From NCBI GenBank assembly GCA_963759765.1, contig CAVXAL010000003.1, positions 423,804-487,803 on the forward strand: a stretch of 64,000 nucleotides of DNA. The letters run 5' to 3'. The translations under genes were made by a program, and so were the position numbers. The DNA is from Candidatus Aminicenantes bacterium. Its GTDB lineage: Bacteria; Acidobacteriota; Aminicenantia; UBA2199. The first letter of the stretch is position 1. Every line of letters starts with the position of its first letter. Positions 827 through 59,621 of this stretch are shown here, piece after piece. The notes beneath the pieces are model-generated. The model worked only from the letters and a program-made list of their open reading frames with translations. It was not told the origin of the DNA and did no database searches.

Positions 827-2230
827 TTAAATTCCCATGCTTAAATATTCATGCATTGAACGGGCCGCGATGCGGCCGGCGCCCATGGCCAGGATGACGG
901 TGGCCGCCCCGGACACGATATCGCCGCCGGCCCATACCCGGTCTTTGGAGGTTTTTCCCGTTTTTTCGTCAACCATGATGGTGCCGCGCTTGCTGATTTG
1001 AAGATCGGGCGTACTTTTGGGGATCAAGGGATTGGGACTGTTGCCGATGGCCACAATGCAGGCATCGAAGGGTGTGACAAATTCAGAACCTTCGATGGGA
1101 ATCGGTCTGGGTCGGCCGGATTGATCCGGTTCTCCCAGCTTCATGCGTTGGCATTCGATTTCTTTCAGCCAGCCCTGGATGTCCGCGATCAGCTTGACCG
1201 GCAGGGTGAGCATTTGGAAAATGATCCCTTCCTCCTCGGCGTTTTCGACTTCCTCCAAGCGGGCCGGCAGTTCTTGCCGCGAGCGGCGGTAAATGATGTG
1301 CACCTCTTCGGCGCCCAGGCGCATGGCGGTCCTGGCGCAGTCCATGGCCACGTTGCCCCCGCCCACGACGGCGACTCGGCGATGTTTCTTGATCGGCGTG
1401 GAGGAGTCGGGAAAGAGAAAACCGCCCATCAGATTCATCCGCGTCAGATATTCGTTGGCCGAATAGACCCCGTTAAAATTCTCGCCGGTCACATTCATGA
1501 ACCAGGGGAGACCGGCTCCGGACCCGATGAAAACGGCGGCGAATTGTTCCAACAGCTGATCCAGTGATCTGATCTTCCCGACCACATAATCGGTAACCAG
1601 TTTCACTCCCAGTTTCTGGATGTAATTGATCTCGCGGCGCACCACGGCTTTGGGCAGACGAAATTCAGGGATGCCGTAGGTCAAGACCCCTCCGGCTTCG
1701 TGCAATGCCTCGAAAATGGTCACGTCGTGACCCAGCAGGGCCAGATCTCCGGCCACTGTAATACCGGCGGGCCCCGATCCCACCACGGCGATTTTTTTCC
1801 CGGTCCTGTTTGCCAGCGGCGGGATTTCGATCTGGCCCTGAGTGGCTTCCCATTCAGCGGCGAACCGTTCCAGCCGTCCGATGGCCACCGCAGCCCCTTT
1901 TTTACTAAGGATGCAGATTTTTTCGCACTGCTCCTCCTGGGGGCAGACCCGGCCGCAAATGGCCGGCAAGCAATTTTTTCCTTTCAGGATGCGAATCGAA
2001 CCGGCGAAATCCTGCTCGGCGATTTTTTTAATGAAAGCGGGAATGTTGATTTCCACCGGGCAGCCTTCCACGCAAATCGGTTTTTTACACTGCAGGCAGC
2101 GCCGGGCCTCCGCCACAGCCAAATCCGCCGTATAGCCCAGCGCGACTTCCCGAAAATTCCGCCTGCGGATGTGAGGCGGCTGCTTGGGCATCTCGCGGCG
2201 CTGCACATCCAGCTTTTTGATCTCGCTCAT
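827..2230 (-). CDS. nfnB: NfnB / GltD-like NADPH-dependent FAD oxidoreductase (glutamate synthase small-chain family, 2x[4Fe-4S])
   Basis: ORF 827..2248. The N-terminal Cys clusters are 'CLQCKKPICVEGCP' and 'CGRVCPQEEQCEKIC'. There are two dinucleotide folds, 'VVGSGPAGITVAGDLA' and 'VVGGGNVAMDCART'. I prefer the ATG at 2230 ('MSEIKK') because it forms an ATGA overlap with the stop of the upstream gene (2227-2229). Confidence 0.8.
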   Translation of the reverse strand: MSEIKKLDVQRREMPKQPPHIRRRNFREVALGYTADLAVAEARRCLQCKKPICVEGCPVEINIPAFIKKIAEQDFAGSIRILKGKNCLPAICGRVCPQEEQCEKICILSKKGAAVAIGRLERFAAEWEATQGQIEIPPLANRTGKKIAVVGSGPAGITVAGDLALLGHDVTIFEALHEAGGVLTYGIPEFRLPKAVVRREINYIQKLGVKLVTDYVVGKIRSLDQLLEQFAAVFIGSGAGLPWFMNVTGENFNGVYSANEYLTRMNLMGGFLFPDSSTPIKKHRRVAVVGGGNVAMDCARTAMRLGAEEVHIIYRRSRQELPARLEEVENAEEEGIIFQMLTLPVKLIADIQGWLKEIECQRMKLGEPDQSGRPRPIPIEGSEFVTPFDACIVAIGNSPNPLIPKSTPDLQISKRGTIMVDEKTGKTSKDRVWAGGDIVSGAATVILAMGAGRIAARSMHEYLSMGI

Positions 2231-3063
2231 AGTTCCCTGCTCCCGCAACCGGCATTATGAACCAGAAAGGCTTCCTCGTTTACATACTGTTTCCGCCTTT
2301 TTAACAGTTCTTCCCAATCCACTTGGCGGCCGTCAAAATCCGGGCCATCCACGCAGGCGAAACACATCCGGCCGTTGACGGTCACCCGGCAGACGCCGCA
2401 CATCCCCGTTCCGTCGATCATGATCGGGTTGAGACTGACGATGACCGGGACATTGAAACGAGCCAGTTCGCTGGACACTTTGTAAATCAGAAACGTGCAG
2501 CCGTTGGCGAAGATGCGCTGCGGGACAATGGCCTCTTCCCTTAAGATGTCGGCAATCCGTCCGGCATGCCCTCGGGCTCCGGAACTGCCGTCCCGGGTAA
2601 TCGTGAATAAGCGCTGGCAGTAGGGGGCGATTTTTTCCTGCCAGTACAAAAGATAGCCGCTGCGGGCCTCCATGAAGACTATGACTTTGTTCCCCCGCTC
2701 ATGAAGGGATTTGATTGTCGGAAACAGGGAGCCGATGCCGTAGCAGCCACCAATGCAGACCACCGTTCCGAATGTTTCTATTTCAGTGGGTCTCCCCAAT
2801 GGCCCCACCACGGTGGGGATGATGTCCCCGGCCTTCAATGCTGCCAGCTTTCCCGTGGAGGCTCCCACTTCCATGAAGATGATCGACAGCGTGCCCGCCG
2901 TACGATCCCAATCCGCTACCGATAACGGCAACCGTTCCGAACGGGGATCGGAGCGGACAATGACGAATTGGCCCGGCTGGATCGCCTGGGCGATCTCCGG
3001 TGCCTGGACGGTCAGGAGGTGCAGGTTGGGAACAATCATCTTTCTTTCCGTTACCTCAAACAT
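2227..3063 (-). CDS. nfnA: NfnA / PyrK-like ferredoxin-NADP(+) reductase subunit (FAD plus [2Fe-2S])
   Basis: This is the part of ORF 2227..3207 that starts at the internal ATG at 3063 ('MFEVTERK'). That ATG follows a GGAGG (reverse complement of 3067-3072). The fold looks PyrK/SudB-like ('RLPLSVADW', 'CIGGCYGIGSL'), with a C-terminal cluster 'GMCGVCRVTVNGRMCFACVDGP'. The 48 codons upstream of this ATG are Arg/Ser-rich junk that overlaps the preceding gene. Confidence 0.8.
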   Translation of the reverse strand: MFEVTERKMIVPNLHLLTVQAPEIAQAIQPGQFVIVRSDPRSERLPLSVADWDRTAGTLSIIFMEVGASTGKLAALKAGDIIPTVVGPLGRPTEIETFGTVVCIGGCYGIGSLFPTIKSLHERGNKVIVFMEARSGYLLYWQEKIAPYCQRLFTITRDGSSGARGHAGRIADILREEAIVPQRIFANGCTFLIYKVSSELARFNVPVIVSLNPIMIDGTGMCGVCRVTVNGRMCFACVDGPDFDGRQVDWEELLKRRKQYVNEEAFLVHNAGCGSREL

Positions 3064-5425
3064 GATTCCTCCCTGACCGGGAATTTTCCTTTTTTTTACG
3101 GGCGAGCGGAACGATCTGGATCGGGTGCGGGTTGGGTGTAAACGCGAACGTTCTGGCTGACGAGGAAAGATACGCCATTCCCCGCGGGATGAATTTCCGG
3201 ATGTCAACGGGGAGTGTTTTTGATTGTTGTTTGGATTTTATTTCCACGGTATCGCCGCTGGCAATGCCCATTTCATCGGCATCCCCGGGGCTGAGGATAA
3301 GGGTGTCTTCGGGAGCGATTTCGTTCATACCCGGGATGATCCGGCTCAGGCTGAGCTGATGATACAAGTGCCCCGTTTTTCCCTGGATCAAGACGAAATC
3401 GGAGTTCATTTTCATTTGTTTGATTTTTCCAGTTGCGGCTCGCTGCCGAACGCGTGCCGGCCGGATGATGCTGGCCTGTTCCGGAATGAGCCGGGATATT
3501 TCTGCCGGGTCGAATGAGATATCTTCACGGCCCATGGCCTGGGCAATCTGCGAAAATATCGCTTGCTGAGTCCGCACCGTGTCGGGGGGAGTGACGGCGG
3601 CGGCAAACTTTTTCCGGATTCCCGATCCGGTATAATAGGAGCCCGAGATTTCGCCGAATGTGGCGGCGGGAAGGATCAGGTCTGCCGCCAGAGAATCTCC
3701 GGGCGGGAACACATTCTGATAAATGAGCGATTTTACCGCGGGCCTGGTTTCGAAAGGGCTGTCACAAACAAGATAAAGGGTATCAATCTTCCCTGCGGCG
3801 ATGAGCCGGCCGACCTCCTCGTTCGTTTGCCAGGGGATCAGAGAAAGCAATCCGGCCAGATTGCCGTAGGGATGGACGGTGAACAGCCGGGCTCGGGTCA
3901 TGTCCATGATTCTTTCAAGCAGCGGCAGGAGCTGGTCGGCTGCACTCAGATTCAATATCTCGGTCCCCAGGATGATCAGCGGAGAGGATGCGGCTTTCAG
4001 ATAGTCGGCGATTTTTTTTATTTCCCGAGACCCGCCTTTCCCTTTTTCAACATGGCGCAGGAGGTCTTCGAAAAATTGCTTCTCTCGTCCGGCCGGGGGT
4101 ACGTGTTGAAGGGTGGCCCAGCGCGACGTCGTGTCTTTGATCCAGCCGATCTGCAGGTAAGGGATGCCCTTTTCGGCAGCGCGTTTGCTGGCCAGAGTAA
4201 GAGGCGCATACCCGTGGTTCCCGTTGACAAAGATTGAAATCAGCAAATCGGACTTTTCTATTTCTTCCAGGGCAAGGCTTTTACTGGCGAGGGATAAGAA
4301 AGAGATCAATTTTTGATCGAGGGCCGAGGACGTAAAACGGGGTGGGGCACTGCAGACCTTTTGAAAAAATTGTTTGGCCGCGGCCATCTCTTCCAGCGTC
4401 AGGTCCGGAGAGAGATAAACAGCCATTTTATTGGCCGCGGTGTCTTTCAATATCTGGCTGGCTTTCTGGAAAGCTTCCGGCCAGGAAACGATTCCCATTC
4501 CTTCCGGGAAACGGAATCGGGGTTCCTGAAGGCGCCGGGGATGGTTCGTCCACTCGCTCAGACAAAAACGACCTTTAACACACAATTCTCCTCCCGCTTG
4601 ATGGGGATCTCCTGGCGGCAGTGTGCCGACAATCTGGTTTTCTTTGCGGGCAATCTGGATGTCACAATTCAGGCTGCACAACGGGCACACCGAGGGTTGG
4701 AATTCCTTGGCCACGCCCTGCCACTTTCTGCTTTTTTCCGCCATCGCTCCGCTCGGACAGACCGTCACGCAGGCGCCGCAAAATTCACAGTTGGCCTGCA
4801 CATGGGTTTGCTCAAACGCCGGTCCGATGGAGGTATAGCGGCCCCTCTTTTTCAGGGTGATAACGGCGCTCTTGCGCTGTTCCTGGCAGATGCGCACGCA
4901 GCGGCCGCAATAGATGCACAGGTTGTAATCACGGTCAAAAAAGGGATCGGCGGTTTCCACCGGCAATTGGCGATAATATACCGGGAACGTGATCTCCTCT
5001 ATTTTGAGCGAGCGGACCAGTTTTTGTATTTCGCAATCGTCATCCTTTGGACACCAGCGGCAGCCGGTGGATACGCCCACCTTGCGGATGGTTTGCTGAA
5101 AATCAAGGCACTCGTCGGCTTCCGAGCAGATCAGGCAGGCTGACGGGTGTTCGCTTAAAATGAGCTGGAGGATCTCCAGGCGCATTTCCTGGAGTGTCTT
5201 GGTCTGGGTGCGGACGACCATTCCTTCCTCGGCCAGGGTGGTGCAGGCGGTGGGATAGCCGCGCATCCCTTCCACTTCCACGATGCATAGCCGGCAACCG
5301 CCGTAGGGAGTTAATTCCGGATGAGAGCACAGGTGAGGGATATAGACATCGTGTGCCTCGGCGGCCTGCAGAATCGTGCTGTTTTTTTCTATTTCCAGCA
5401 AGCGATTATCGATGGTGATGGTCAT
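3056..5425 (-). CDS. NuoG-like Fe-S subunit: [2Fe-2S], a His-ligated [4Fe-4S], 2x[4Fe-4S] and a molybdopterin-oxidoreductase-fold domain with no recognisable catalytic residues
   Basis: Intact 789-aa ORF. Motifs are 'CSHPELTPYGGCRLCIVEV', 'HPSACLICSEADEC', 'CIYCGRCVRIC', 'CEFCGACVTVCP' and the Mo-Fe4S4-type 'CPLCSLNCDI...CVKGRF'. The C-terminal barrel reads 'LILSPGDADEMGIASGDTVEI'. I saw neither H-cluster motifs nor an FdhA-like Cys/Sec-His active-site motif. Confidence 0.75.
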   Translation of the reverse strand: MTITIDNRLLEIEKNSTILQAAEAHDVYIPHLCSHPELTPYGGCRLCIVEVEGMRGYPTACTTLAEEGMVVRTQTKTLQEMRLEILQLILSEHPSACLICSEADECLDFQQTIRKVGVSTGCRWCPKDDDCEIQKLVRSLKIEEITFPVYYRQLPVETADPFFDRDYNLCIYCGRCVRICQEQRKSAVITLKKRGRYTSIGPAFEQTHVQANCEFCGACVTVCPSGAMAEKSRKWQGVAKEFQPSVCPLCSLNCDIQIARKENQIVGTLPPGDPHQAGGELCVKGRFCLSEWTNHPRRLQEPRFRFPEGMGIVSWPEAFQKASQILKDTAANKMAVYLSPDLTLEEMAAAKQFFQKVCSAPPRFTSSALDQKLISFLSLASKSLALEEIEKSDLLISIFVNGNHGYAPLTLASKRAAEKGIPYLQIGWIKDTTSRWATLQHVPPAGREKQFFEDLLRHVEKGKGGSREIKKIADYLKAASSPLIILGTEILNLSAADQLLPLLERIMDMTRARLFTVHPYGNLAGLLSLIPWQTNEEVGRLIAAGKIDTLYLVCDSPFETRPAVKSLIYQNVFPPGDSLAADLILPAATFGEISGSYYTGSGIRKKFAAAVTPPDTVRTQQAIFSQIAQAMGREDISFDPAEISRLIPEQASIIRPARVRQRAATGKIKQMKMNSDFVLIQGKTGHLYHQLSLSRIIPGMNEIAPEDTLILSPGDADEMGIASGDTVEIKSKQQSKTLPVDIRKFIPRGMAYLSSSARTFAFTPNPHPIQIVPLARKKKENSRSGRNHV

Positions 5426-7297
5426 TTGCCCTCCCGGGTGCGGATCACGATGGCATTGCCGGCGATGGCGTCAAAACGGCAAATTTCAAGGCAGGCGCGG
5501 CATTTGATGCATTTGAAAATGTCCAGGTTATGGGGTTCGGATCGCGGTCCGGAAATTGCTCCGGTGGGGCAGACACTGACACAGCGTTGGCAGCCGGTGC
5601 ATTTTTCGGGGATGACGTAGTATTCAATGAGCGAACGGCAGACCAAAGCCGGGCAGTACTTGTTGAGCACATGCTCGACGTATTCATTTCTGAAGTAACG
5701 CAGGGTGGTGATGACCGGGTTGGGAGCGGTCTGCCCCAGGCCGCACAGGGAGGTCGATTGGATGGTCTTGGCCAGGGATTCCAGTCGTTTCAGGTCATCG
5801 ATCTCCCCCTGGCCGTTGCAGATCTTTTCCAGTATTTCCACCATATGGCGGGTGCCGACCCGGCAGGGGGTGCATTTCCCGCAGGATTCTTTCTGAATAA
5901 AATTCAAAAAATACCTGGCTATGTCAACCACACAGGTATCGGCGTCCATGACGATCAATCCTCCCGACCCCATGATAGAACCAGCCTGGGCGAGAGTTTC
6001 ATAGGTCAACGGTGTCTCTAGAAATTCTTCGGGGAGGCAGCCGCCGGACGGGCCGCCGGTTTGCACGGCTTTAAATGCCTTTTGGGTCCCGCCACCGATA
6101 TCGTGAATGATTTTTTTTAAAGGCGTGCCGAGGGGGACTTCGATGAGTCCGGTGCGGCGCACCTTGCCCACCAGAGAAAACGTCTTGGTTCCGGGATTTC
6201 CGTCGCTGCCGTACTGCCTAAACCAGGCCGAGCCGTTTCGGAGAATAGGGGGATGGTCCCAGGGTCTCCACGTTGTTGATGACGGTGGGATTGCCGAAGA
6301 GTCCGGATGTGGCCGGAAAGGGGGGTTTGGTCCGCGGCATGCCGCGTTTTCCCTCGATCGATTGGATCAATGCTGTCTCCTCGCCGCACACAAATGCGCC
6401 CGCCCCTTCTTTGATTTTCATATTAAATGAGAAACATGACCCCAGAATGTTTTTCCCCAGCAAGCCGGTTTCTTTCATTTGCCTGATGGCGATTTTCAAG
6501 CGCTGGATGGCCAGTGGGTATTCGGCGCGGATATAGATGTAGCCCAGTGAAGCCCCGATGGCATAGCCGGCGATCAGCATACCTTCCAGAACGGCGTGGG
6601 GATCTCCTTCCAGCAGGGAACGGTTCATGAACGCCCCGGGGTCCCCCTCGTCGGCATTGCAAATGATCTGTTTCGGGCTGCCGCTGGCATTTCTGCAGAT
6701 CTGCCATTTTTTCCCGGTGGGAAAACCGGCGCCGCCGCGCCCCCGCAACCCGGACCTGGTTATCTCGTCGATGACCTCTTGCGGAGAAAGAGAAAGGGCT
6801 TTCTGCAAACCGCTGTAGCCGTCCTGGGCCAGGTAATGGTTGATGTTTTCGGGGTCGATGAAACCGCAATTTTTCAAAACGATGCGCACCTGGTTTTGGA
6901 ACATGGGCTGGTCGAAAAAATGGGGGAGATTGTCAAACGGTTTGTCGCCAAAATGTCCCACCGCATACGCAGGTGTGTATTCGCCTTTGAGCAGGTGCTT
7001 TTCGATAATTATTTTGGCCTTGACCGGATTCACATTGGCATAGGAAATACGGGGATTTCCCCGAGCGGCGACATCCATCAATGGTTCCAGGTAACAGGGC
7101 CCGATGCAACCCACTTCCATTAACCGGGCAGGCACCTTGTGCTTTTTAAGGGTGGAGATAATCGCATTCTTGACTTCCTCACTACCCGCCGCCCTGCCGC
7201 AAGAGGCCGTGCCGAGATAGATCAGGGGAACATCTTGACGATGCAGGTCTTCCCACTCCGCCTTGCTCTTATTTATCCATTGCTGCAAGTTAGTCAT
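5422..7297 (-). CDS. NuoF/HydB-like flavoprotein subunit (N-terminal thioredoxin-like [2Fe-2S], FMN/NADH site, [4Fe-4S], C-terminal 2x[4Fe-4S]); one frameshift near 6250
   Basis: The fragments are 6218..7297 and 5422..6171. The first carries '[13 protein letters not shown]' and '[10 protein letters not shown]' and ends '...NNVETL'. The second carries '[10 protein letters not shown]', '[12 protein letters not shown]' and '[11 protein letters not shown]'. Reading 6250-6170 in the third frame gives '[43 protein letters not shown]', which bridges the two fragments. A single indel near 'ETLG' therefore splits the gene. Confidence 0.8.
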
Positions 7298-7754
7298 ATT
7301 TCTCCAACAGCTCCTTTAGTTTGATCACAGCCATATTGCCGTAAATGCGCTCATCCACCTTGACCACCGGGGCCAGGGCGCAGCAACCGAGGCAGGCGAC
7401 CGCGTCCAGATCAAATTTCCGGTCAAGGGTGCATTCCCCGCTTTTGATTTCCAAATGCCTTTCCAGGGCCTCCAGAAGAATGTTTCCTCTGCGCACATGG
7501 CAGGCTGTTCCCAGGCAAACCGTGACGGTATGACGCCCCTTGGGGACGAAACGGAACTGGGCATAAAAAGAGGCCACCCCATAAATTTCATTTTCGGTCA
7601 TCTTCAGATAACCGGCGATTTCATCAACCAGCGTTGGGGAAAGGTAGCCGAATTCCTCCTGAACTTTCTGCAGAATGGGGATTAAACTTCCCGGTTCGAT
7701 CGGGAATTCTTGGAATATTTTATCCAGTTGCAGCCGCTCGTTTTCCATGTCCAC
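7290..7754 (-). CDS. NuoE/HydC-like thioredoxin-like [2Fe-2S] ferredoxin subunit
   Basis: 154 aa. The cluster ligands lie in '[12 protein letters not shown]' and '[12 protein letters not shown]'. Its stop overlaps the start of the HydB-like gene by 8 nt. Confidence 0.85.
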
Positions 7755-7778
7755 GCTCCGTTGGTCATTGTTGCTTAT

Positions 7779-9041
7779 CTATTTTGAAAAAAAGATACAT
7801 TCCGTCACGTCGGCTTCTCCCCGGGCGCAATCTTCGGCGAACGTGGCGCAGTCGGGCGAACCGCACAGGCCGCAATCTTTCTGGGGAAGTTTCATCAGGA
7901 TCCGTTCTTTTTGTCTCAATTTCTTAATGGCAACCGCGATATCGCCATCGATGGCCCGGGTGGGACGGGGAAGAATGGGATGTTCCATGAAATAGTATTT
8001 GCGCTGATATTTCTTGTATATGGCCTTTTGGTCCAGTTTTTTGGGAATAGCATAGGTTTTTTCCATCAAAATGGAATTGTACCGGGCGATATAAGGATTT
8101 TCCACGCAGTAGGCGCCAGCCACGCATCCCTGCATGCAGGCCAGTGCTTCAATGAAATCGACGCTGCGCAGTTTGGAATTTTCGATGTCGTCGAAGATTT
8201 TTTTGACATGACTGATGCCCGCCACCGACAGGCAACGCTCCGGGCCCAGCACCCGAGACAGATTACCCAGTATCCCCCAGTCTTTGTCATAATAAAACGT
8301 TTTTCCCGGGGGTGGGCCGGTGTTTTTCTGAATTTTGAAAATTTCCGGTAAGAGAACATTAAAAATTTCTTTGATGGGAATGGCCCCGTCAATCCAGGAG
8401 CGCTCTTTTTCAGCCGGTTGCTTGATGGAAACTATTTTGGCTGGGCACTGGGAGATATAGATGATCCCAATTTTATCTTTTTTGATGCCTTTCTTTTTGG
8501 CAAATAATTGCTTGGCTTCTTTGGCCGCTATTTCAAGCGGCACATCAAAAGGTTCGATGAGATTGACCAGGTTGGGGTACTTCACCTGCAGATAGCGAAC
8601 GATGGTCGGGCAGTATGAACTGATCAACGGCCGGACTTTGTTTTGAGTTTTCAGGTGGTGACGCATGACGAATCCCAGTTCATGGGTGACGTCGGTGTAA
8701 TCCACCACCTCGTCGAAGCCGATGTTTTTTAGCGCCTGATGAATAATTTGCGGGCGGATGTCCTGCCCGAATTGGGTATACAGGATGGGGGAAGGAAGGG
8801 CAATTTGATAGGAGAACACATTGAAATCCTCTTTTTCATCACTCTTGGGAACAAAAACCTGTTGCCGGCACGCATTGATGCATTCACCACAGTCAATGCA
8901 GAGGTCATTGAGGAACGTGACTTTTCCCTGCTTGACCCGGATGGCCCCGGTGGGGCAGACACGCAGGCACTTCATCCTGGCCTGGCATCGTTCTTCGATT
9001 ATCTGATGGGCGTGATAAAAAAAATGGGTCGTCGCACTCAT
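7779..9041 (-). CDS. [FeFe]-hydrogenase-like (HydS-like, putative sensory) Fe-S protein
   Basis: 420 aa with an N-terminal 2x[4Fe-4S] ferredoxin ('CLRVCPTGAI', 'CIDCGECINAC'). The H-cluster-like motifs are 'SSYCPTIV' (L1 with a single Cys), 'SQCPAK' (L2) and 'EALACMQGCVAG' (L3). The C-terminus carries 'CGLCGSPDCATFAEDCARGEADVTEC'. Its start forms an ATGA overlap with the upstream stop (9038-9041). Confidence 0.7.
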   Translation of the reverse strand: MSATTHFFYHAHQIIEERCQARMKCLRVCPTGAIRVKQGKVTFLNDLCIDCGECINACRQQVFVPKSDEKEDFNVFSYQIALPSPILYTQFGQDIRPQIIHQALKNIGFDEVVDYTDVTHELGFVMRHHLKTQNKVRPLISSYCPTIVRYLQVKYPNLVNLIEPFDVPLEIAAKEAKQLFAKKKGIKKDKIGIIYISQCPAKIVSIKQPAEKERSWIDGAIPIKEIFNVLLPEIFKIQKNTGPPPGKTFYYDKDWGILGNLSRVLGPERCLSVAGISHVKKIFDDIENSKLRSVDFIEALACMQGCVAGAYCVENPYIARYNSILMEKTYAIPKKLDQKAIYKKYQRKYYFMEHPILPRPTRAIDGDIAVAIKKLRQKERILMKLPQKDCGLCGSPDCATFAEDCARGEADVTECIFFSK

Positions 9042-9865
9042 GGCTTGACGAAAAATTTCATCTCCACGTGGGTTCCCTTGCCCACTTCCGAGGTGATGTG
9101 GAGAATATCCGAATTCTTTTTGATGTTGGGGAGCCCCATGCCTGAGCCAAATCCAAGGGATTGCTGCTCTTCTGTGGCCGTGGAGAAGCCTTCTTGCATC
9201 GCCTTTTCAATATCGGGTATGCCTTTGCCTTCATCATCGATGGTGATGGCGATTTCCTGATCGCTGGCTTTCAGCACGACCACCCCTCGCTGGGCATGCA
9301 TCACCACGTTCATTTCGCCCTCGTAGGTGGAGATGGCCACCCGTCGGACCATCAAGTGGTGGTAGCCGATAGAATTCAAGATACTTTTGATTTCGGTCGA
9401 AATCATGCCCGCTTTGGTAAAATCGCCGCCTTCGATTTTGAATTGATGGGTGGCTACATCCTCTTCTTCTTTTTTTAGGCTGAGGACTGTTTCGGAGTCG
9501 GGGAGCAGTTGCCCGTCGATCTGGGCAATTTTTATGCAGGCTTCGTACATGTCCGCCTTGGTGGTTAAAATGATCAAACCTTTTTCCTGGGCAAACTTCC
9601 GGATGTCCTCCGTGGGTTTTTTCCCCCTCAGGAAAATAATGGCTTTGAATTCGGCCATGTAGGACGATATGGCCGTTTGGATGGCATTCATGCCGGTTAA
9701 TAAAACCGATCCGGTTTTACCGTAAGCCAGCACATCGCTCATTAAATCGGAAGCATAAATGCCGGTGACATGGGTTCCCAGCAGGTTTTCGCCCACAATG
9801 ATCTGGGCCTGCAGGGATTCCTGGATGCGTTGAATGGTCAGTTGATGAAGATGCTTTTCAGGCAT
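9038..9865 (-). CDS. DRTGG-domain protein fused to a GHKL ATPase (RsbW-like Ser/Thr kinase/anti-sigma-type)
   Basis: 275 aa. The N-terminus is DRTGG-like ('ASDLMSDVLAYGKTGSVLLTG'). The C-terminus has ATPase boxes 'EMNVVMHA', 'DDEGKGIPD' and 'GFGSGMGLPN'. Confidence 0.7.
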   Translation of the reverse strand: MPEKHLHQLTIQRIQESLQAQIIVGENLLGTHVTGIYASDLMSDVLAYGKTGSVLLTGMNAIQTAISSYMAEFKAIIFLRGKKPTEDIRKFAQEKGLIILTTKADMYEACIKIAQIDGQLLPDSETVLSLKKEEEDVATHQFKIEGGDFTKAGMISTEIKSILNSIGYHHLMVRRVAISTYEGEMNVVMHAQRGVVVLKASDQEIAITIDDEGKGIPDIEKAMQEGFSTATEEQQSLGFGSGMGLPNIKKNSDILHITSEVGKGTHVEMKFFVKP

Positions 9866-9878
9866 GGACCGAATTTGT

Positions 9879-10214
9879 TTATTGATTTTTTAGACCCAGC
9901 GCATTGAGTTCTGAAGCGATGTCAAAGGTTGTTTTGGGGGTGGAAAGCAAGATGACGTGATAGCGGTTTGCCAATTCGATGGTTTTTTCCGGAACTTTTT
10001 TGTTGTGGGTGATGACCACCGCTGCTGCATCCACCAGGTTGGCGACTGAAATAACATTGGTATGGGTTTGAACGGTGAGCCACAAGTCTCCGGATTTGCC
10101 GCTGGTCATGACATCCGAGAGCAAATCGGAGATGAACACCCCCAGGACATCTCTTTCTTCCAGTTTGGTCAACGTTTTCAAATTTAGTTTTTCAATGATT
10201 TTCTGAAGCTTCAT
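9879..10214 (-). CDS. DRTGG-domain protein
   Basis: 111 aa. 'ISDLLSDVMTSGKSGDLWLTVQTH' resembles the N-terminus of the neighbouring DRTGG-ATPase. It is co-directional and lies 13 nt from the next gene. Confidence 0.65.
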   Translation of the reverse strand: MKLQKIIEKLNLKTLTKLEERDVLGVFISDLLSDVMTSGKSGDLWLTVQTHTNVISVANLVDAAAVVITHNKKVPEKTIELANRYHVILLSTPKTTFDIASELNALGLKNQ

Positions 10215-10241
10215 CCCTTTCCTCCTGGCCGTTTTGGTCTT

Positions 10242-10817
10242 TCATCCTTCTTCTTCGGGTGCGGTTAAGGAAAGCATGTTCACATCCTTGATGACCTCTC
10301 CGTAACACGTGACGAAATTCTTCACCAGCTCTTGCGACACAATTTTAATCCGCGTGCGCGAGGATTTCCGCCGCTGATTGAAAAAATCCTCCAATATGGC
10401 AATCTGTTTCTTGGTCAGCTGCTTGTGTTCGTCGTTGGGTAAATAACCAAAAGCAACATAAACCCAGGTCCTCTCTTTTTCAAGTTTTTTCCTGACCTTT
10501 TCCACCTGGCAATTTTCATCGCAGCCGGTGCACATCGCCAGTCCCATCAATTCGTTGAAACTGACCAGCTGGCCGCAATGCCTGCATTTGAAATCAAAGC
10601 GGAAGGATTGCGCGCTTTCCATCACATTCCAGAAATGGTCCCCTTCGCGATATTCTTCCAGTGGCGGCCGATCTTCAAATGTGAAGTAGGTGGATATCAT
10701 TTCACATTTGGAACACTTCTCGGTAATCAGAAAGCCATAGGCGATATTGGCCATTTCCCAGATGTGATTGCATGTTGCCTCAGGCATGGAATTCACCAGT
10801 CCTTTTGGAGAGTTCAT
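10242..10817 (-). CDS. Cys-rich hypothetical protein (putative zinc-ribbon pairs); first gene of the operon
   Basis: 191-aa ORF with 'CSKC...CRHC' and 'CTGCDENC'. I recognise no family. The start is uncertain (M1 or M11, 'MPEATC'). Confidence 0.45.
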   Translation of the reverse strand: MNSPKGLVNSMPEATCNHIWEMANIAYGFLITEKCSKCEMISTYFTFEDRPPLEEYREGDHFWNVMESAQSFRFDFKCRHCGQLVSFNELMGLAMCTGCDENCQVEKVRKKLEKERTWVYVAFGYLPNDEHKQLTKKQIAILEDFFNQRRKSSRTRIKIVSQELVKNFVTCYGEVIKDVNMLSLTAPEEEG

Positions 10818-10924
10818 TTTAGTTAATAATCTAAAAAAATGTCAAGCAAAATCCGGGGGGGCGTATACTCTTTTAACAGTCGATGATTAATTTTTTAACA
10901 CCGCACATCCTTTTCCATGTGGAA

Positions 10925-11049: not shown

Positions 11050-11315
11050 TTCTCCTTGGGCAATGGCTGCGAACGGTTTTCCCGAAGAGCCAAACCAATT
11101 TTATATAACCTCTTGGCGAAATATTCAAGCCAGCGCGGTTTCCTGTCTTTTACTCTTCATGATTTATTTTTGCATTTTTTTTTTGGATTAAGATACAATA
11201 CCCGTGCGAGGTGGATCCATGGGAAAGCCCATTCGGGTTTTAATTATCGGGGATTCTGAAAAGGATTCCCGTTTGTATCTTCAATGCGTGAAAAACGCCG
11301 GTTTCAAGCCGAGGC
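10988..11315. repeat. Copy A of a ~330 bp imperfect direct repeat (duplicated divergent promoter region plus both gene starts)
   Basis: It aligns base for base, with scattered mismatches and small indels, to 12541..12871. Examples are 'gggcagggccaggg.tgagagcgtcaaaaactgcatgaaatcgcggcggga', 'tcaagcca.gcgcggtttc' and 'cattcgggttttaattatcggggattc.gaaaa.gattcccgtttgtatcttcaatg.gtgaaaaacgccggtttcaagccgaggc'. Confidence 0.9.
11219..11315 (+). pseudogene. Truncated duplicate of the first 32 codons of the receiver/PAS kinase gene
   Basis: 'MGKPIRVLIIGDSEKDSRLYLQCVKNAGFKPR' compares with 'MGTPIRVLIIGDSEKDSRLYLQCVKNAGFKPR' at 12775. After 11315 the frame runs antisense into the 3' end of the aminotransferase gene (ORF 11204..11485). 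Confidence 0.6.
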
Positions 11316-11342
11316 ACAATCGTTTTCGATTTAGTGCTGCAC

Positions 11343-12603
11343 TTACCTGCCGGCAAGTTCGCGCACGCAGGCCAGCGTGGCCTCGATTTCTTCCGGGCTG
11401 TTGTAGATATGAATTGATTGCCGGTTGCCGCGGATGCGTATTTTCTTGCGCTTCCATAATCCGTCTTGCAGCTCGCTGCCTTTGAGGTTTTGACCTCGTA
11501 ATGGGTGATGCCGGCGCACATAGCCGGATGCAGGGAAGTGTTGATCTGGACCCCCTTTATTTTTTTTAATCCCTCGCGCAGGTAATCGCCGAGATATTTG
11601 ATATCGTTGAAAAACTCTTGGCGGGCCGATTTGGTTGTGGAAGTCGATGGCCGTGTTGAGCCCGATGAGGAGCGAGAGGTTGCCGGTTCCGCGCTGGTGA
11701 GCCGGTAGCCGTCGTCCTGGTGGTTGTTCCACTGGCCGCTGGCCAGCGTGATCCAGATTTCCCTGATGCGTTCCTTGCGGATGTAGAGGAATCCGGTGCT
11801 GGCGGCGCCAGGAACCACTTATGCAGGCTGGCGTAACAGGCGTCGCGAGCCCAATTCACGTCCGTCGGGATATGGCCGAACGCCTGGGCGCCGTCGATGA
11901 CGGTGAAAATTCCGCGCTGCGCCCCCTCGCTGCACAGCTCCTTAATCGGCAGAATGGTGCCGGTTAACGAGATCATATGGGGAATGGCCAGCACCTTGGT
12001 CCGGATGCCGATGGCGTTGCGAAAAAGGTCAACAATTTCTTCGGGGGAACGTGGCGGCTTGGGCAGGGTAACCGGCGTGTAGTTCAAATTTTCCCGCTTG
12101 GCTTTCACCTCCCAGCCGCAGCGGCCGCCCGGATGCTCCATGTCTGTGGCCAGGATCTCGTCACCGGCGTTCAGCTCCAGGCCGTGGGCGACGGTGTTCA
12201 TGCCCATGGTCGCATTTTCGGTCAGGGCGATCTCTTCCGGGCTGGCGTTGATCAGTTTGGCCAGCTTGCCGCGCAGGGGCAGGTAGGCTCCGTACCCGGA
12301 GATCCAGTCGTCGCCCTTGTAGTCCCACTGGGCGATGTCCGCGGCCACTTGGCGCATGTGTTCGACCACGGCTTCGACCACGACCCGCGGCGGCGAGCCC
12401 AGGGTGCTGGTGTTGAAAAAGGCCTGGTCGACGGGCATGGTGAACAGAGCGCGTAGTTTTTTCCAATAGTCGGCCGCACCGGCGGCTGGGAATTCCATTT
12501 CGCTGACCTTACTCTTTTCGAAGTTCCACTGCGGAAAAGCGGGCAGGGCCAGGGTTGAGAGCGTCAAAAACTGCATGAAATCGCGGCGGGAAATCATAGG
12601 CAT
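11343..12603 (-). CDS. Class V-fold PLP-dependent aminotransferase (CefD/cysteine-desulfurase-like) with a twin-arginine signal; about 4 frameshifts
   Basis: The fragments are 11566..12603, 11240..11818 and 11343..11732. The first holds the Tat motif 'MISRRDFMQFLTLSTLALPA', 'ENATMGMN' and 'ASLHKWF'. The second reads 'GAASTGFLYIRKERI...'. The third is the C-terminus, 'IHIYNSPEEIEATLACVRELAGR'. Confidence 0.65.
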
Positions 12604-12871: not shown

Positions 12872-15800
12872 TCAGCCGCATAGGAAGCGCCGGTGAACTG
12901 AAAAAAGCCCTGAAACAGCCGTGGGACCTGATCATTTTTGCTGAGCGGCGGCGACGATTCGCTGTTGATCGGGCGCTGAAAATCATCAACCAAAAGGGGC
13001 TGGATGTCCCGTTCATCGTTGTGGCCGAAACCCTCAGTGAAGAGAGTTTCAGCGCGTGTCTGAAAAGCGGGCGAACGATTGCTTGGGCAAAAACGACCTG
13101 GCCCGTTTGGCGCCGATCGTTCAGCGGGAAATGCGCGCGGTTAGTGAACGTCGCGAACGCCAGCGGGCGGATGCGGCACTGCATGAAAGCGAAGCGAAAT
13201 ATCGGGCTCTTTTCGAATCCGCCAATGACGCGATTTGCCTGCTGGAAGGCGAGCGATTCAGCGAGTGCAATTCCCTGGCCCTTTCCCTGTTCGGCTGCAG
13301 GAAAAAAAGCGATCTGCTCGGTCGTTCACCGCTCGATTTTTCTCCCAACAAACAGCCGGATGGAAAAAAATCAAGGAGATGGCCCGGGTCCATATCGCTG
13401 CCGCGCTGAGAGGAAAGCCGCAGAGATTCGACTGGCAACACCAGCGCCGGGACGGTACCCTTTTTGCTGCCGAGGTATCGTTGAGCAAACTGACGTGGGG
13501 TGAGAAACCAATTCTTCTGGGAATTGTTGAGAAACGTATCCGAACGCGAGCGTATCGAGAAAGAATTGCGGGATTCGGAGGAGCGGCTGAAGCTCCTGTT
13601 CGAGAATGTGCCGGATGCGTTTACCTGAGCGATCTGAAAGGTTGTTTCATTGACGGGAGCAGGGAGGCGGAAAGATATCTGGGTTATAAACGAGAGGAGT
13701 TAATAGGAAAAAGTTTTTTCGAAGCTTAAATTGTTATCCCCCCGGCAAATTCCGCGAGCCGCTGCGTTGCTGGCAAAAAATGCGTTGGGGAAAGCCACCG
13801 GCCCGGATGAATTCACCTTGAACCGGAAAGATGGAGGTCAGATTGTTGTGGATATTCGCACCTATCCGGTTAGGATCAAAGGTCAAACGGTGGTGCTGGG
13901 AATTGCCCGAGACATCACCGAACGCAAGCGGGGGGAGGAGGTGCTGCGGGAGAGCGAAGAGAGATATCGTGGGTTGGTCGAACAGTCCCTGGTGGGAATT
14001 GGCATCTCTCAGGGGAATCGGGTCTTTTTTGCCAATCCGGCCCTGCTGGACATTTTTGGTTACGATGATCTTGAAGAATTTGCCAAGATATCCCTTCAAG
14101 GTGATCATGTGGCGCCCGCCTCCCGTGAATATATTGTCAACCGGATGAGAAATGCCGCCAGCGAGGGAGCCCTGCAAGCCGATTTTGAATACGACATCCT
14201 GCGCAAGGATGGGCAAATCAGAACGTTGCATGCTTTTTCGGCCCGCTCTGGCTGGCGAGATACCCAGACTGTCTTCCAGGACATCACCAAGCACAATTCG
14301 GAAAAACGTTTTCGAGGGGATCTACAGAAGCACGCAGGGAGGAAAGCTGATCATGGCAAACCCCGCGCTGGTGCGCATGCTCGGTTATGTCTCCGAGGAG
14401 GAGCTGCTTTCTGTCGAACTCCGTCAGCACTACGTCAATGCGGACGACCGGAAGCGCATGACGGGCCTCCTGGAGAAAGAAGGGGAGCTACGCAACTATA
14501 CACTCAACTTGAAACGCAAAAACGGGCAGATCATAACCGCGCTCGAGAATGCGAGGGCGGTACGTGACGGTCAGGGCAATCTTCTGTATTACGAAGGGAC
14601 TCTCACGGACATCACGGAGCGCCAGCGAACGGAGACGGAACTCTTTAATTCCCGTCAGATGTTGCAGCTGGTCCTGGATACGATTCCGCAGCGCGTGTTT
14701 TGGAAGGCCCGCGACTTCTCCTATCTCGGTTGCAACAAACTGTTTGCCCATGATGCCGGACTTGACCATCCGGATACCGTTGTCGGCAAGGATGACTTCG
14801 AACTTTCCTGGAAGGATACCGCCCAGTTGTATCGCGACGACGACCGCTGGGTGATGGAAAACAACATCGCCAAACTCAACTTTGAGGAACCGCAGACCCG
14901 GCCCGACGGCAGCCAATTGTGGCTGCGGACCAGCAAGGTACCGTTGAACGACGCCGAGGGGAAGGTGATCGGCGTTCCGGGAACCTACGAGGACATCACC
15001 GAGCGCAAGCAAATGGAAAGCCGGCTGCTGGAGTCGGAAGAATATTACCGGACGCTGGTGGAGACCTCGCCCGACGCCATCATCATTGTCGATGCCGGCG
15101 GTCGTCTGTTGTTCGGTTCCCGGAAAGCCTACGAGTTGTTTGTCATACCTCCGGACCTGCCCGTTCGCGGAATGCCGATTCTGAACTGGATTGCAGCCGA
15201 GGATCAGGGCAAAATAGAGGAACGGATGGTGCAAATCCTCTCCGGCCAAGCGAAGCCGGGCACGCGGGAATACAGGCTCCTCAAGAATGATCGCACGCCC
15301 TTCTGGGGAGAATTGTCGGCGTCACCGTTGCTGGATGCGCGGGGTCAGACCATGGGGCTGTTGATTGTCATCCGCGACATCACCGAGCGCAAGCGGGCGG
15401 AGGAGGCCCTGCGGGCCAGCGAAGAGAAGCACCGCACCCTGTTCGAGGAATCCAAGGACGCCGTGTTCAGTTTTTCCATTGCCGGTGAATGGCTGGACCT
15501 CAATCCTGCCGGTTGGGAATTGTTCGGATTTTCCGGCAAGGAGCTGGGGCAGCAGAAGAGTGTCCGGGATACATTTCTTGATCGCGAGGATTTCGACAGG
15601 TTAAAAAAAAGCATCGAAAAACAGGGATTTGTCAAGGATTACGAATTGTCACTGAAGGGGAGCCGGGGCCAGCGGCTGGATGCGCTGATCACCGCTTCCA
15701 CGGTCCGTGATCCGGCGGGTGGTATCCGGGCGTTTCGTGGCATCATCCGCGACGTGACCGAACAGCGGCAGCTGGAAGAACAGTTCCTCCATTCGCAGAA

Positions 15801-16914
15801 AATGGAGGCCATCGGTCGGTTGGCCGGCGGCGTGGCTCACGATTTCAACAACCTCTTGACCACCATCATGGGCAATGCCGAGCTGAGTCTTCTCAAGGTG
15901 GCAGAGAATCATCCGCTCAAGGAATCGTTGAAACAGATCAGCGGGGCCGCCGAGCGGGCGGCGCAGTTGACCCGCCAGCTCCTTTCGTTCAGCCGCAAGG
16001 AAATCACCCAGCCCCAGTTGTTCAATCTGAATGAATCGTTGATTAAATTGCGCAAAATCCTTTCCCGTTTACTTGGCGAGGATATTGATTGCCAGTACCA
16101 GCTCGCCCCTGACCTGAAATGGCTCCATGCCGATCCGACGCAAATCGAGCAGGTGATTCTCAACTTGGTGGTCAATGCCCGGGATGCCATGCCGCGGGGA
16201 GGAAAGCTGGGTATCCGCACCGAAAACCTCATTCTGGATGAAGAATTCCAGAGCCGGCATCGCGGGGTGCGCCCCGGCCACTACATCAAACTCACTGTTA
16301 GTGATAATGGCGTGGGCATGGATCCGGACCTTGCGGCCAGGATTTTTGAGCCGTTTTACACCACCAAACCGGAGGGAACCGGGTTGGGACTGTCAACCGT
16401 ATACGGGATCGTCAAGCAATTGGCCGGACAAATTGAACTCCACAGCCAAAAGGGGAAAGGCACCACGTTTGAGATTTATTTTCCCACAGCCGGGGAACAG
16501 ATCACTGCGGGTGAAAAAGAGCCGAGCCGAGAGCAGGGCCAGTTGCCTGGAGGGAAGGAGACCATCCTCGTTCTGGAAGATGAGGGGGCAATCCGGATGC
16601 TCATCAAAGGGGTTTTGGGAGAGCTGGGATATCGCCTGTTAACCGCCGGCAACGGCGAGGAGGCGGTGCAGCAAGCCCTGACCGGGGCCATCGATCTGTT
16701 GATCACCGACGTGGTGCTGCCGGGCGAGAAGGGGCCCAGCGTGGCCAGGAAACTGGAAAATATGTATCCGAAAATGAAGGTGATCTACATGTCCGGTTAC
16801 ACCTACGACCGCATCGACAGCGCGGAGATTCTCGAAGGGAAGGTCCATTTCCTCACCAAACCTTTCAGCCCGGTTACGCTGGCCCGCAAAGTTCGGGATG
16901 TGTTGGACAGCTGA
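12775..16914 (+). CDS. Multi-PAS hybrid sensor histidine kinase (N-terminal receiver-like domain, at least 6 PAS, HisKA, HATPase, C-terminal receiver); about 6 frameshifts in the first 1.5 kb
   Basis: The fragments are 12775..13503, 13056..13409, 13235..13729, 13731..14567 and the intact 14152..16914. The repeated PAS linker signature is 'DITERK(R/Q)'. The H-box is 'AHDFNNLLTTIMGNAEL', the N and G boxes are 'VNARDAMP', 'DNGVGMD' and 'GTGLGLS', and the receiver reads 'ILVLEDE...DLLITDVVLPG'. Confidence 0.8.
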
Positions 16915-22630: not shown

Positions 22631-25016
<2,386 letters not shown>

Positions 25017-35080: not shown

Positions 35081-35687
35081 ATGTCCCTGATCCCGATCGT
35101 CATCGAACAGACCGGCAATGTGGAAAGGGCCTACGATATCTATTCCCGCCTCCTCAAGGACGGGGTGATTTTTCTCGGCTCGGCCATCGACGACAACATC
35201 GCCAACCTCATCATTGCCCAGCTGCTTGTTTTTGGAGGCCGAAGACCCGGAAAAAGACGTGTCGCTCTACATCAATTCGCCCGGCGGGGTCATCAGCCCG
35301 GGAATGGCCATCTACGACACCATGCGTTTCATCAAGAACGACGTGGTGACCATCTGCATCGGCCAGGCCTCCTCGATGGCCGCCATCCTGTTGGCCGCCG
35401 GCACCAAGGGCAAGCGCTTCGCCCTGCCCAACTCCAAGATCATCATCCATCAGCCGCTGGGCGGTTTCGAAGGCCAGGCCACCGATATGCTGATCCAGGC
35501 CGAGGAGATGCGGCGGAGTCAAGGAGAAGACCATTGAAATCCTCGCCGGCATACCGGCCAGAAACGGGAACGCGTCGCCGCCGACATCGAGAGGGATTTC
35601 ATCATGTCCGCCGACGAGGCCCTGAAGTATGGTATCATCGATTCGGTCATCAGCGAGCGCAAGAGGGAGAAGAAAGGCGGTCGATGA
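35081..35687 (+). CDS. clpP: ATP-dependent Clp protease proteolytic subunit; two frameshifts (about 35225 and 35520)
   Basis: The translation reads '[33 protein letters not shown]' then '[32 protein letters not shown]'. The catalytic residues lie in 'GQASSMAA' and 'IIIHQPLGG'. The tail '[19 protein letters not shown]' ends at TGA 35685-35687. Confidence 0.9.
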
Positions 35688-44892: not shown

Positions 44893-44902
44893 GAGGTGGA
44901 GC

Positions 44903-59309: not shown

Positions 59310-59621
59310 GGCTACGGATTCCTATAGGAGTCCATCTAACTTGCCCCAATTTATTATACCATATGCAATGTTAGAGTTTGAGGCATGATTGCCTCTGGAG
59401 CGGAAGGTTGGCAAAATTTAATTGATAGCTGAATCCAAGATAGGGGAACCATTTTACCCAACTGCGGGAATCTGCTCGTTATTGACATAGCTCCTCGGCT
59501 GGATATATCATGACTCCGGAATCCCTGCAGAATCCGGCCCTATGGCCAAAACGCCATGACGGCACAGCCCCATGATCAAGCGGGCGGGAAAGTTGAAGCC
59601 GTGGCGAAAGGAGACACGCCG

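Follow-up and report, generated by a model that had tools for sequence, protein, structure and literature searches.

A 64-kb window (64,000 nucleotides at positions 423,804 to 487,803 of the 1.34-Mb contig CAVXAL010000003.1) from a Candidatus Aminicenantes assembly (GCA_963759765.1) contains at 827-10817 a tight run of open reading frames (ORFs), all on the minus strand. An earlier note had read this run as a nine-gene operon (g0 to g8, Table 1) in which a HydBC/NuoEFG-type flavin module is joined to an NfnA/NfnB pair behind regulatory genes. The products of the last five genes (g4-g8) may make up a soluble Bfu-family oxidoreductase of five subunits, acting on NAD(H), NADP(H) and ferredoxin. 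It would be an unfused relative of the Stn and Nfn-Bfu enzymes with NfnAB as its NADP(H) module, an interpretation favoured here with moderate confidence. The interpretation is based on the conservation of the five genes across genomes, the composition of their products and the existence of related fusion proteins.

Conservation and composition of the five-gene core

A motif scan of the GTDB species representatives gave 553 relatives, of which the best 80 loci were analysed. The syntenic loci are all from metagenome-assembled genomes (MAGs), and single taxonomic assignments need caution. The nfnA and nfnB genes lie 3' of the NuoG-like gene in all 68 loci whose downstream flank is 2.6 kb or longer, and nuoE and hydB lie 5' of it in 62 of these; in the other six, nuoE is further upstream (L008, L009, L015 and L034) or went undetected in the locus. 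The loci span more than a dozen phyla, those of Aminicenantes being closest to the window, and come from Bacteroidota, Chlorobiota, Acidobacteriota, Armatimonadota, Cloacimonadota, Zixibacteria, Desulfobacterota, Planctomycetota, Chloroflexota, Actinomycetes, Eisenbacteria, one Eubacteriales MAG and one Bathyarchaeia MAG. The flanking genes vary between loci and are not conserved. In a relative of 63% identity (GCA_040961665.1), all ten ORFs recur with their order unchanged, and HydB is an intact protein of 625 aa. The gene order on which the earlier note had made its proposal depend is thus retained in relatives. Of the candidates scored, 3769 proteins fall within the NuoG-like family as a whole at E <= 1e-30. 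In clustering at 90%, the NuoG-like protein of the window is the sole member of its cluster and comes from one contig.

The junctions of the core mostly overlap or are shorter than 30 nt, and the estimated gap between the NuoG-like gene and nfnA is 0 nt or less in 55 of 74 loci. In the window, ATGA start/stop overlaps are read at 9038-9041, 5422-5425 and 2227-2230, and 8-nt overlaps at 7290-7297 (g5/g4 junction, ATGACTAA) and 3056-3063 (g7/g6 junction, ATGTTTGA). The remaining junctions of the block are gaps of 27, 13 and 24 nt, the last of them separating g3 from the nuoE-like g4. The minus-strand orientation and all of the overlaps and gaps first reported proved exact on re-reading of the sequence.

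The NuoE-like subunit g4 (BfuC) is matched by the NCBIfam models of NuoE, HoxE and FdsG alike, each at ~1e-38 to 1e-40. The HydB-like gene g5 (BfuB) is split between two frames in the assembly, and its frame was repaired to give a 625-aa protein for the structure-sequence comparisons. The repaired protein scored 746 bits against the NfnB of C. saccharolyticus (Csac; 9BOV, chain 9bov_B), 741 bits against that of T. sibiricus (Tsib; 9N5U), 733 bits against NiFe-HydB, the B subunit of NiFe-Bfu (7T2R), 714 bits against StnB (8OH5) and 702 bits against A. woodii HydB, and only ~400-420 bits against the non-bifurcating FdsB and Nqo1. It aligned end to end with the BfuB structures, with the FMN/NADH site and the B1 [4Fe-4S] cluster present. 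The alignments to 9bov_B, 8oh5_B and 7t2r_B extend to residue 612 and the C-terminal 2x[4Fe-4S] part (B3/B4) has its Fer4 motifs at C567-C577 and C597-C607; this ferredoxin-site domain is not found in the non-bifurcating NuoF/FdsB. The B2 Zn-site motif (H...CPAxxC), aligned with HIRDKKCPAKQC, and the conserved GGPSG loop, in the form QTGGPSGGC, are both present and are features of BfuB (PMC12018979, PMC11829005). In the N-terminal Trx-like domain (B5 site, [2Fe-2S] or Zn), Cys33, Cys64 and Cys68 align with Csac NfnB, which has Zn there, and with StnB, which has a [2Fe-2S] cluster there. The extended HydB architecture first ascribed to this subunit, with its N-terminal Trx-like and C-terminal 2x[4Fe-4S] parts, is found in the repaired protein. 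The g5/g4 pair looks like a bifurcation-type core, closest to those of Nfn-Bfu/Stn, NiFe-Bfu and HydABC.

The NuoG-like subunit g6 (BfuA) was compared within a family alignment of 79 sequences, in all of which the ligands for clusters A1-A5 are invariant. The active sites of its catalytic homologues are missing. Pfam gave no Fe_hyd_lg_C domain and only residues 1-240 align with HydA structures, and a catalytic HydA was rejected on the lack of that domain. The alignment with FdsA stops at residue 379, short of the catalytic Cys386/His387. In a profile alignment (hhalign) of the family with E. coli FdhH, deletions cover both Sec140-His141 and Arg333. The stretch that matches the catalytic site of formate dehydrogenase (FDH) reads I-[T/D]-[S/T]-[S/T] in the 79 sequences, and no Cys after C282/C288 is conserved among them. 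The FDH alpha model TIGR01591 scored 84 bits (cut-off 666) and the NuoG model TIGR01973 254 bits (cut-off 470). Among the best-scoring Protein Data Bank (PDB) matches, the Mo-like domain aligns over the greatest length with the domains of StnC and Csac NfnA that have no catalytic activity. On these criteria of sequence, g6 is non-catalytic, a putative Fe-S wire with no third-substrate site of its own, in line with the first description of a NuoG-like subunit having neither an H-cluster nor an obvious FDH active site; upon alignment it is neither an ordinary FdhA nor an ordinary HydA. The NuoG of a Complex I N-module was rejected as a further candidate: the scores stay below the equivalog cut-offs, as do the nuoF_fam fragments of g5, and no nuo membrane genes flank the operon in the window or in locus L001.

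A family-specific extra CxxCx5C motif of g6 (C122/C125/C131) is invariant in all of the aligned sequences. It arises within an internally duplicated His/Cys motif at residues 93-131, H-x3-C-x2-C-x5-C followed by C-x2-C-x5-C, the second copy of which is missing from FdsA and NiFe-Bfu HydA and may bind an extra cluster. The motif lies in a 25-aa insert at the point where the GltD domain is inserted in StnC and Nfn-BfuA. Residues 121-568 of StnC have no counterpart in g6, which contains no Pyr_redox or Fer4_20 domain. An Stn-type fused BfuA was rejected for g6, because the inserted GltD domain that defines it is missing and the Cys-rich insert stands in its place.

The two genes that follow encode a canonical NfnAB with all cofactor ligands kept, as judged by alignment, and the complete pair noted at first reading is borne out by scores above the NCBIfam cut-offs for both subunits (Table 1). 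NfnA (g7) scored 233 bits against the NfnS of P. furiosus (Pfu; 5jca_S) and 210 bits against the NfnA of T. maritima (Tma). It has FAD/NAD(H) domains and an Asp plus three Cys [2Fe-2S] motif, DGTGMCGVCRV...FACVDGP, that aligns with 5jca_S and 4ylf_A. NfnB (g8) scored 563 bits against Tma NfnB (4ylf_B), with 57% identity. In the alignment to 4ylf_B and 5jca_L it keeps CGRVCPQEEQCE, of the motif form CGRVCPQExQCE with the Glu-ligand cluster, and the Arg that matches Pfu R201 at FAD N5 is kept in PEFRLP. Two [4Fe-4S] clusters and the FAD and NADPH sites are present by motif and fold.

Two loci, from different phyla, show a different arrangement of the core. In L039 (6835-9978, Bacteroidales) and L030 (6879-9998, Acidobacteriaceae), HydB is ~1040 aa long and has a GltD/NfnB-like module (Fer4_20 and Pyr_redox_2) in place of the C-terminal 2x[4Fe-4S] ferredoxin-site domain, with the NuoG-like gene, nfnA and nfnB still downstream. 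Another locus (L033) has a separate, divergently oriented pair of nuoE and nuoF-GltD genes.

A movable cassette of putative regulatory genes

The four genes g0-g3 were found in 26 of the 36 loci with large flanks, upstream of the core in 18 and split in 8, with g0-g1 upstream and g2-g3 downstream of the core; the other 10 lack them. The earlier note had expected conservation of the whole block from the DRTGG genes through the GHKL and HydS-like genes to nfnB. This holds for the core, whereas the four upstream genes are facultative. They probably form a movable regulatory cassette that tunes the enzyme to H2 or redox state. Domain scans detected no DNA-binding domain in the cassette, and no Rex or other shared regulator was seen upstream of the loci without it, where the genes are unrelated and variable. 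In L008, L009, L015 and L034 (at ~3.9-6.4 kb of each locus), a second divergent GHKL/HydS-like/DRTGG set with 28-48% identity lies between nuoE and the HydB-like gene.

The HydS-like g3 qualifies as a group D (M2e) [FeFe]-hydrogenase, and as a putative H2 sensor, by every sequence criterion of that group (PMC8163306). It contains the motifs SSYCP, SQCPAK and EALACMQGC and a C-terminal Cx2Cx4Cx16C. The four H-cluster Cys and the C-terminal motif are invariant in all 59 relatives; none of these sequences has a Cys at the position of Cys299, and all have Ser/Thr instead of Met353. Pfam detected no PAS domain in g3. The M2e enzyme TamHydS, which turns over H2/H+ reversibly but slowly, shares with g3 the domain order, the signature substitutions and an adjoining GHKL ATPase gene (PMC8163306). 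The described M2e genes lie upstream of a catalytic HydABC hydrogenase (PMC8163306), whereas no H-cluster gene was seen among the five core genes that adjoin the cassette here and in the 26 relatives, so the observation that the cassette precedes a module without a catalytic hydrogenase stands. The sequence class first given to the HydS-like protein also stands, but the H2 or redox sensing then attributed to it does not follow from a cassette that is accessory and absent from 10 of the 36 loci. Since g3 is missing from these loci and mobile in others, it is not regarded as a catalytic subunit. The operon ties group D HydS-like proteins to a non-hydrogenase target, which bears on what such putative sensors regulate. 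No HydE, HydF or HydG, the maturases that a functional HydS requires, was seen among the ORFs scanned in the 64 kb, a scan that was not exhaustive. Genes for [NiFe] maturation, a split HypF and HypE, are found at 42649-45892 on the plus strand.

The best NCBIfam match of g2 is the anti-sigma F factor, below the cut-off, and its GHKL domain is of the SpoIIAB/RsbW type; g2 is likely a serine-kinase-like signalling protein. In relatives, g1 is kept adjoining g0. The Cys-rich g0 has no Pfam or NCBIfam match but belongs to a family of 260 homologues, all hypothetical, with 55-78% identity and eight invariant Cys, and is present whenever the HydS-like gene is. An AlphaFold2 (AF2) model of g0 (pLDDT 82) matched no PDB fold at E<0.07; weak OB/Zn-ribbon-like Foldseek matches had E>=0.077 and TM<=0.28.

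The proposed enzyme and its alternatives

In the proposed five-subunit enzyme, the HydBC/StnAB-type core, composed of the NuoE-like BfuC and the HydB-like BfuB with its FMN, would be connected to NfnAB by the NuoG-like BfuA acting as an Fe-S wire, and the separate NfnAB would supply the NADP(H) site, taking the role of the fused GltD domain in Stn. NADPH would be oxidized at the FAD of NfnB and the electrons would pass from the NfnB [4Fe-4S] clusters through the cluster chain of BfuA to the B1-FMN-C1 site of BfuBC, where NAD+ and ferredoxin would be reduced; the reverse direction would produce NADPH. NfnA would be a second NAD(H) port. Physical association, electron path, reaction direction and sensing role are all inferred here. 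The operon probably balances the NADH, NADPH and ferredoxin pools in anaerobes.

Every Bfu enzyme described in the text of the Bfu classification (Schut et al. 2022, PMC9304861) combines BfuBC, for NAD(H) and ferredoxin, with a third reaction located in a domain of BfuA or in extra subunits. NfnAB is proposed as the third-substrate module because BfuA here contains no such domain and NfnA and NfnB are the only invariant extra subunits. Fusion proteins are consistent with this assignment. StnC and the Csac and Tsib NfnA are NuoG-like, and each carries an NfnB-like domain as an insertion that follows approximately residue 113-125. NfnB-like modules are thus linked by two independent kinds of fusion to BfuA (Stn, Nfn-Bfu) and to BfuB (L039, L030), which provides support of the Rosetta-stone kind. 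The insertion point in StnC matches the Cys-rich insert of g6, further supporting a coupling to NfnB.

The Stn/Nfn-Bfu enzymes (Type 1 Bfu; S. ovata StnABC, 8OH5; Csac NfnABC, 9BOV; Tsib NfnABC, 9N5U) are the closest solved relatives of g5 and of the Mo-like part of g6, and have in common with the operon a HydBC-like core, an inactive NuoG/FdhF-like domain and an NfnB/GltD-type NADP(H) module. They differ in having GltD inserted in BfuA, no NfnA and three subunits, whereas NfnB and NfnA are separate here and the genes number five. The resemblance to the Sporomusa Stn pointed out in the earlier note is closer than it had stated, StnC itself being NuoG-like with a GltD/NfnB-like insert (PMC10482914). 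The FAD of the Stn GltD domain has lost its bifurcating character (PMC10482914); unlike it, the NfnB here keeps the bifurcation-associated Arg and the Glu-cluster motif. Compared with NfnAB/NfnSL (Tma 4YLF, Pfu NfnI 5JCA), g7 and g8 pass the family cut-offs and keep all cofactor ligands. The NfnAB described so far, however, stands alone as a heterodimer, and 'there is no HydBC homologue in Nfn' (PMC10482914), whereas nfnAB here always lies 3' of the NuoG-like gene, with stop/start overlaps in most loci. The Type 2/3 Bfu enzymes (NiFe-HydABCSL, 7T2R; Wor-Bfu; Bam-Bfu) follow, in the text of the classification, the same concept of a BfuBC core, a BfuA wire with A1-A5 and separate substrate subunits, and Bam-Bfu is proposed there to join the Bfu module to a second bifurcating module, HdrA, in the place of which the operon has NfnSL (PMC9304861). 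The same text, apart from its large supplementary table, describes no Bfu type with separate NfnA and NfnB subunits (PMC9304861).

Several observations weigh against the five-subunit enzyme. There is no precedent for a complex that combines two NAD(H) sites with two bifurcation-competent centres, nor is it evident what stoichiometry such a complex would have. NfnAB is canonical, with all ligands including the FAD-N5 Arg and the Glu-cluster motif, has no extra docking domain and could function as an independent Nfn. The median identity of NfnB to its operon-linked orthologues (~71%) exceeds that to the stand-alone Tma NfnB (57%) by a modest gap. The AF2 model of g6 and Foldseek gave a generic FdsA/NuoG fold only, with TM ~0.67-0.70 to FdsA-type FDHs, and the pLDDT of 35-55 over residues 100-236 makes the cluster-binding region unusable for placing the extra motif. 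Finally, the coding frame of g5 is disrupted in the assembly as given.

Geobacter SfrAB, composed of the NuoG/FdhA-like SfrA and the GltD-like SfrB, is a further case in which a Mo-pterin-like Fe-S subunit without FDH function is combined with an NADPH flavoprotein. Neither a NuoE/NuoF core nor an NfnA is known from SfrAB.

The strongest alternative, which is possible but doubtful, is that the operon encodes two separate enzymes, a stand-alone NfnAB and an orphan BfuABC, co-transcribed for redox balancing; the third partner of BfuABC would then be encoded elsewhere, or BfuABC would be a plain NADH-ferredoxin electron shuttle. NfnAB agrees with it in being canonical in every tested feature and without extra domains, and adjacency is no proof of a complex, a caveat raised for Codh-Bfu in the text by the Bfu authors (PMC9304861). 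However, BfuA has no substrate site, so that BfuABC alone would be left without the third reaction of every described Bfu. The synteny with NfnAB in every locus counted, across more than 12 phyla and with overlapping stop and start codons, and the existence of NuoG-like or HydB-like fusions with NfnB-like modules also speak against two enzymes. Of the NADH/NADPH/ferredoxin transhydrogenase supercomplex proposed in the earlier note, the conservation and the kinship with Stn have held, whereas NfnAB could also work alone, outside a physical complex.

A tandem, two-stage bifurcation is considered unlikely. The FAD of NfnB and the Bfu flavobicluster would operate one after the other, connected by the NuoG-like subunit, with a second bifurcation of the low-potential electron from Nfn, and the M2e cassette would gate the process by H2. 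This reading is raised because both bifurcation sites look intact, unlike the GltD FAD of Stn. Speculatively, with E' values of -380, -280 and -500 mV, the arithmetic would give 4 NADPH : 3 NAD+ : 1 ferredoxin, or an acceptor at ~-680 mV, which would be comparable to the Bam-Bfu proposal.

Decay of the operon in the source organism, with a genuine frameshift in g5 and an inactive enzyme, appears improbable. The sequence as given does divide g5 between two reading frames, with ORFs at 6218-7297 (359 aa) and at 5422-6171 (249 aa), a frameshift that was overlooked when the nine genes were first listed; the block, its order and its junctions hold, but the HydB-like gene does not form one continuous ORF. 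The site lies at 6247-6262 of the minus strand in a GGG...CCCCC context, with a C5 run at 6248-6252. The spacing NNVET...GTK in HydB-like proteins is 32 residues in all 68 relatives and is regained in the window only by +2 nt or -1 nt near the C5 run. Against decay, the break is a 1-2-nt indel at a homopolymer and both halves are otherwise intact, with 76-88% identity to relatives. At least five more housekeeping genes of the window (for Lon, HypF, the class-V aminotransferase, Clp and a second Lon-like protein; Table 1) are likewise broken into neighbouring ORFs of different frames, a pattern typical of error-prone long-read assembly. Because of these other splits, the break in g5 is very probably an assembly indel of the long-read error type and not biology.

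It is still less probable that g3 is the catalytic subunit and that the whole set is a split H2-linked Bfu hydrogenase acting on H2, NAD(P)(H) and ferredoxin, similar to HytA-E/FdhA, in which BfuA and the H-cluster subunit are distinct proteins. The retention of all four H-cluster Cys in the 59 relatives, the reversible though slow turnover of H2/H+ by TamHydS (PMC8163306) and the position of g3 24 nt upstream of nuoE agree with it. However, 10 of the 36 large-flank loci have the five-gene core without g3. Moreover, g3 travels with the GHKL, DRTGG and g0 genes, and in 8 loci the g3-GHKL pair is located at the opposite end of the operon. None of the relatives has the proton-transfer Cys, and the scan of the window, not an exhaustive one, gave no HydE/F/G. 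That g6 is an FDH, an electron-confurcating 'FdhA-HydBC' enzyme, a name frequent in MAG annotations, to which NfnAB is merely adjacent, is effectively refuted in spite of the weak Molybdopterin, Molybdop_Fe4S4 and Molydop_binding Pfam matches, the name 'formate dehydrogenase major subunit' given to the homologue P0005 in one source and the FdsA-type FDHs among its best Foldseek matches, by the deletion of the catalytic Sec/Cys-His pair and Arg, the lack of a conserved Cys, the low TIGR01591 score and the alignments to inactive domains.

The architecture of the operon is apparently undescribed though widely conserved. The available text of the Bfu classification, the Stn/Nfn-Bfu structure papers, the Nfn distribution review and the M2e papers contains no description of a BfuABC plus NfnAB operon, nor does that of the Hydrogenedentota, Ignavibacterium and Syntrophobacter genome papers describe nuoEFG-like genes followed by nfnAB. 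In MAG annotations the genes are named NuoEFG, 'formate dehydrogenase', 'YjgC' and glutamate synthase. Nfn and Stn/Bfu have been presented as alternative solutions to one problem, 'most species' having either Nfn or Stn (PMC10482914), and here both kinds of module are found in one operon. Among the carriers are uncultured anaerobes that are abundant, for example Aminicenantes, Bacteroidales, Phycisphaerae and Anaerolineae. If the five subunits form one enzyme, it would add a new Bfu type, offer an unfused comparison for thinking about the origin of StnC and a natural test case for the coupling of two bifurcation sites, and change the modelling of the NADH/NADPH/ferredoxin balance in the carrier organisms.

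Features of the operon and of its surroundings

The features of the operon and the other split genes are listed in Table 1. Every domain assignment made at first reading agrees with Pfam and NCBIfam, at E-values well outside what chance would give.

Table 1. Genes of the operon, promoter-like site and other split genes in the 64-kb window
Feature	Coordinates	Strand	Matches and remarks
g0, Cys-rich protein	10242-10787	minus	no Pfam/NCBIfam match, conserved family
g1, single-domain DRTGG / HprK-N-like	9879-10214	minus	Pfam DRTGG 1.9e-6, Hpr_kinase_N 2.7e-7
g2, DRTGG + GHKL ATPase	9038-9865	minus	Pfam HATPase_c 3.9e-9, HATPase_c_2, DRTGG
g3, HydS-like [FeFe]-hydrogenase, group D (M2e)	7779-9041	minus	Fer4 x2, Fe_hyd_lg_C 1.4e-25, FeS 1.8e-10
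g4, NuoE/HydC/StnA-like [2Fe-2S] subunit (BfuC)	7290-7754	minus	Pfam 2Fe-2S_thioredx 1.6e-46
g5, HydB/StnB-like flavoprotein (BfuB)	5422-7297, split	minus	Complex1_51K 2.2e-46, NADH_4Fe-4S 3.1e-35, 2x Fer4
g6, NuoG-like (BfuA)	3056-5425	minus	Fer2_4, NADH-G_4Fe-4S_3, Fer4, Molybdop_Fe4S4, Molybdopterin, Molydop_binding
g7, NfnA (NfnS)	2227-3063	minus	NF004862, 315 bits (cut-off 220)
g8, NfnB (NfnL)	827-2230	minus	TIGR01316, 580 bits (cut-off 472)
Promoter-like site, TTGACA-18 nt-TAAAAT, 11/12	10816-10845	minus	consensus match only, directly upstream of g0
Split class-V aminotransferase	11566-12603 / 11240-11818		missing G
Split Lon	22631-24445 + 24408-25016
Split Clp protease fragment	35081-36025
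Split second Lon-like gene	37209-38534
Split HypF	42649-43632 + 43849-44892	plus

Promoter-type matches across the region are no more numerous than in shuffled sequence. The start of g0 is most likely at 10787, because the resulting protein of 181 aa is as long as the database entry P0121 and its counterparts in relatives; an ATG at 10817, to which the ORF could be lengthened, overlaps the -10 hexamer of the promoter-like match. Intrinsic terminators in the operon numbered 18 matches compared with 16.8 in shuffled sequence, and every minus-strand match lies inside a coding region. A tRNA scan and Rfam at the gathering threshold found nothing over the whole window.

The ORF at 1-810 on the plus strand is convergent with nfnB, with 16 nt between the stop codons, and has no Pfam match; on visual inspection it looks like the C-terminal portion of a glycoside hydrolase similar to the GH106 alpha-L-rhamnosidase encoded at 59556-62990 on the plus strand. 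On the other side of the operon, two hybrid sensor kinases with receiver domains, one PAS-rich (14152-16914, plus strand) and one containing GAF (18429-20837, minus strand), enclose a LarA-like gene of the lactate racemase family (17113-18423). The PAS ORF upstream of the first kinase (13731-14567) may be a further split piece. Stretches of high GC yield long spurious antisense ORFs, for example at 44132-45757.

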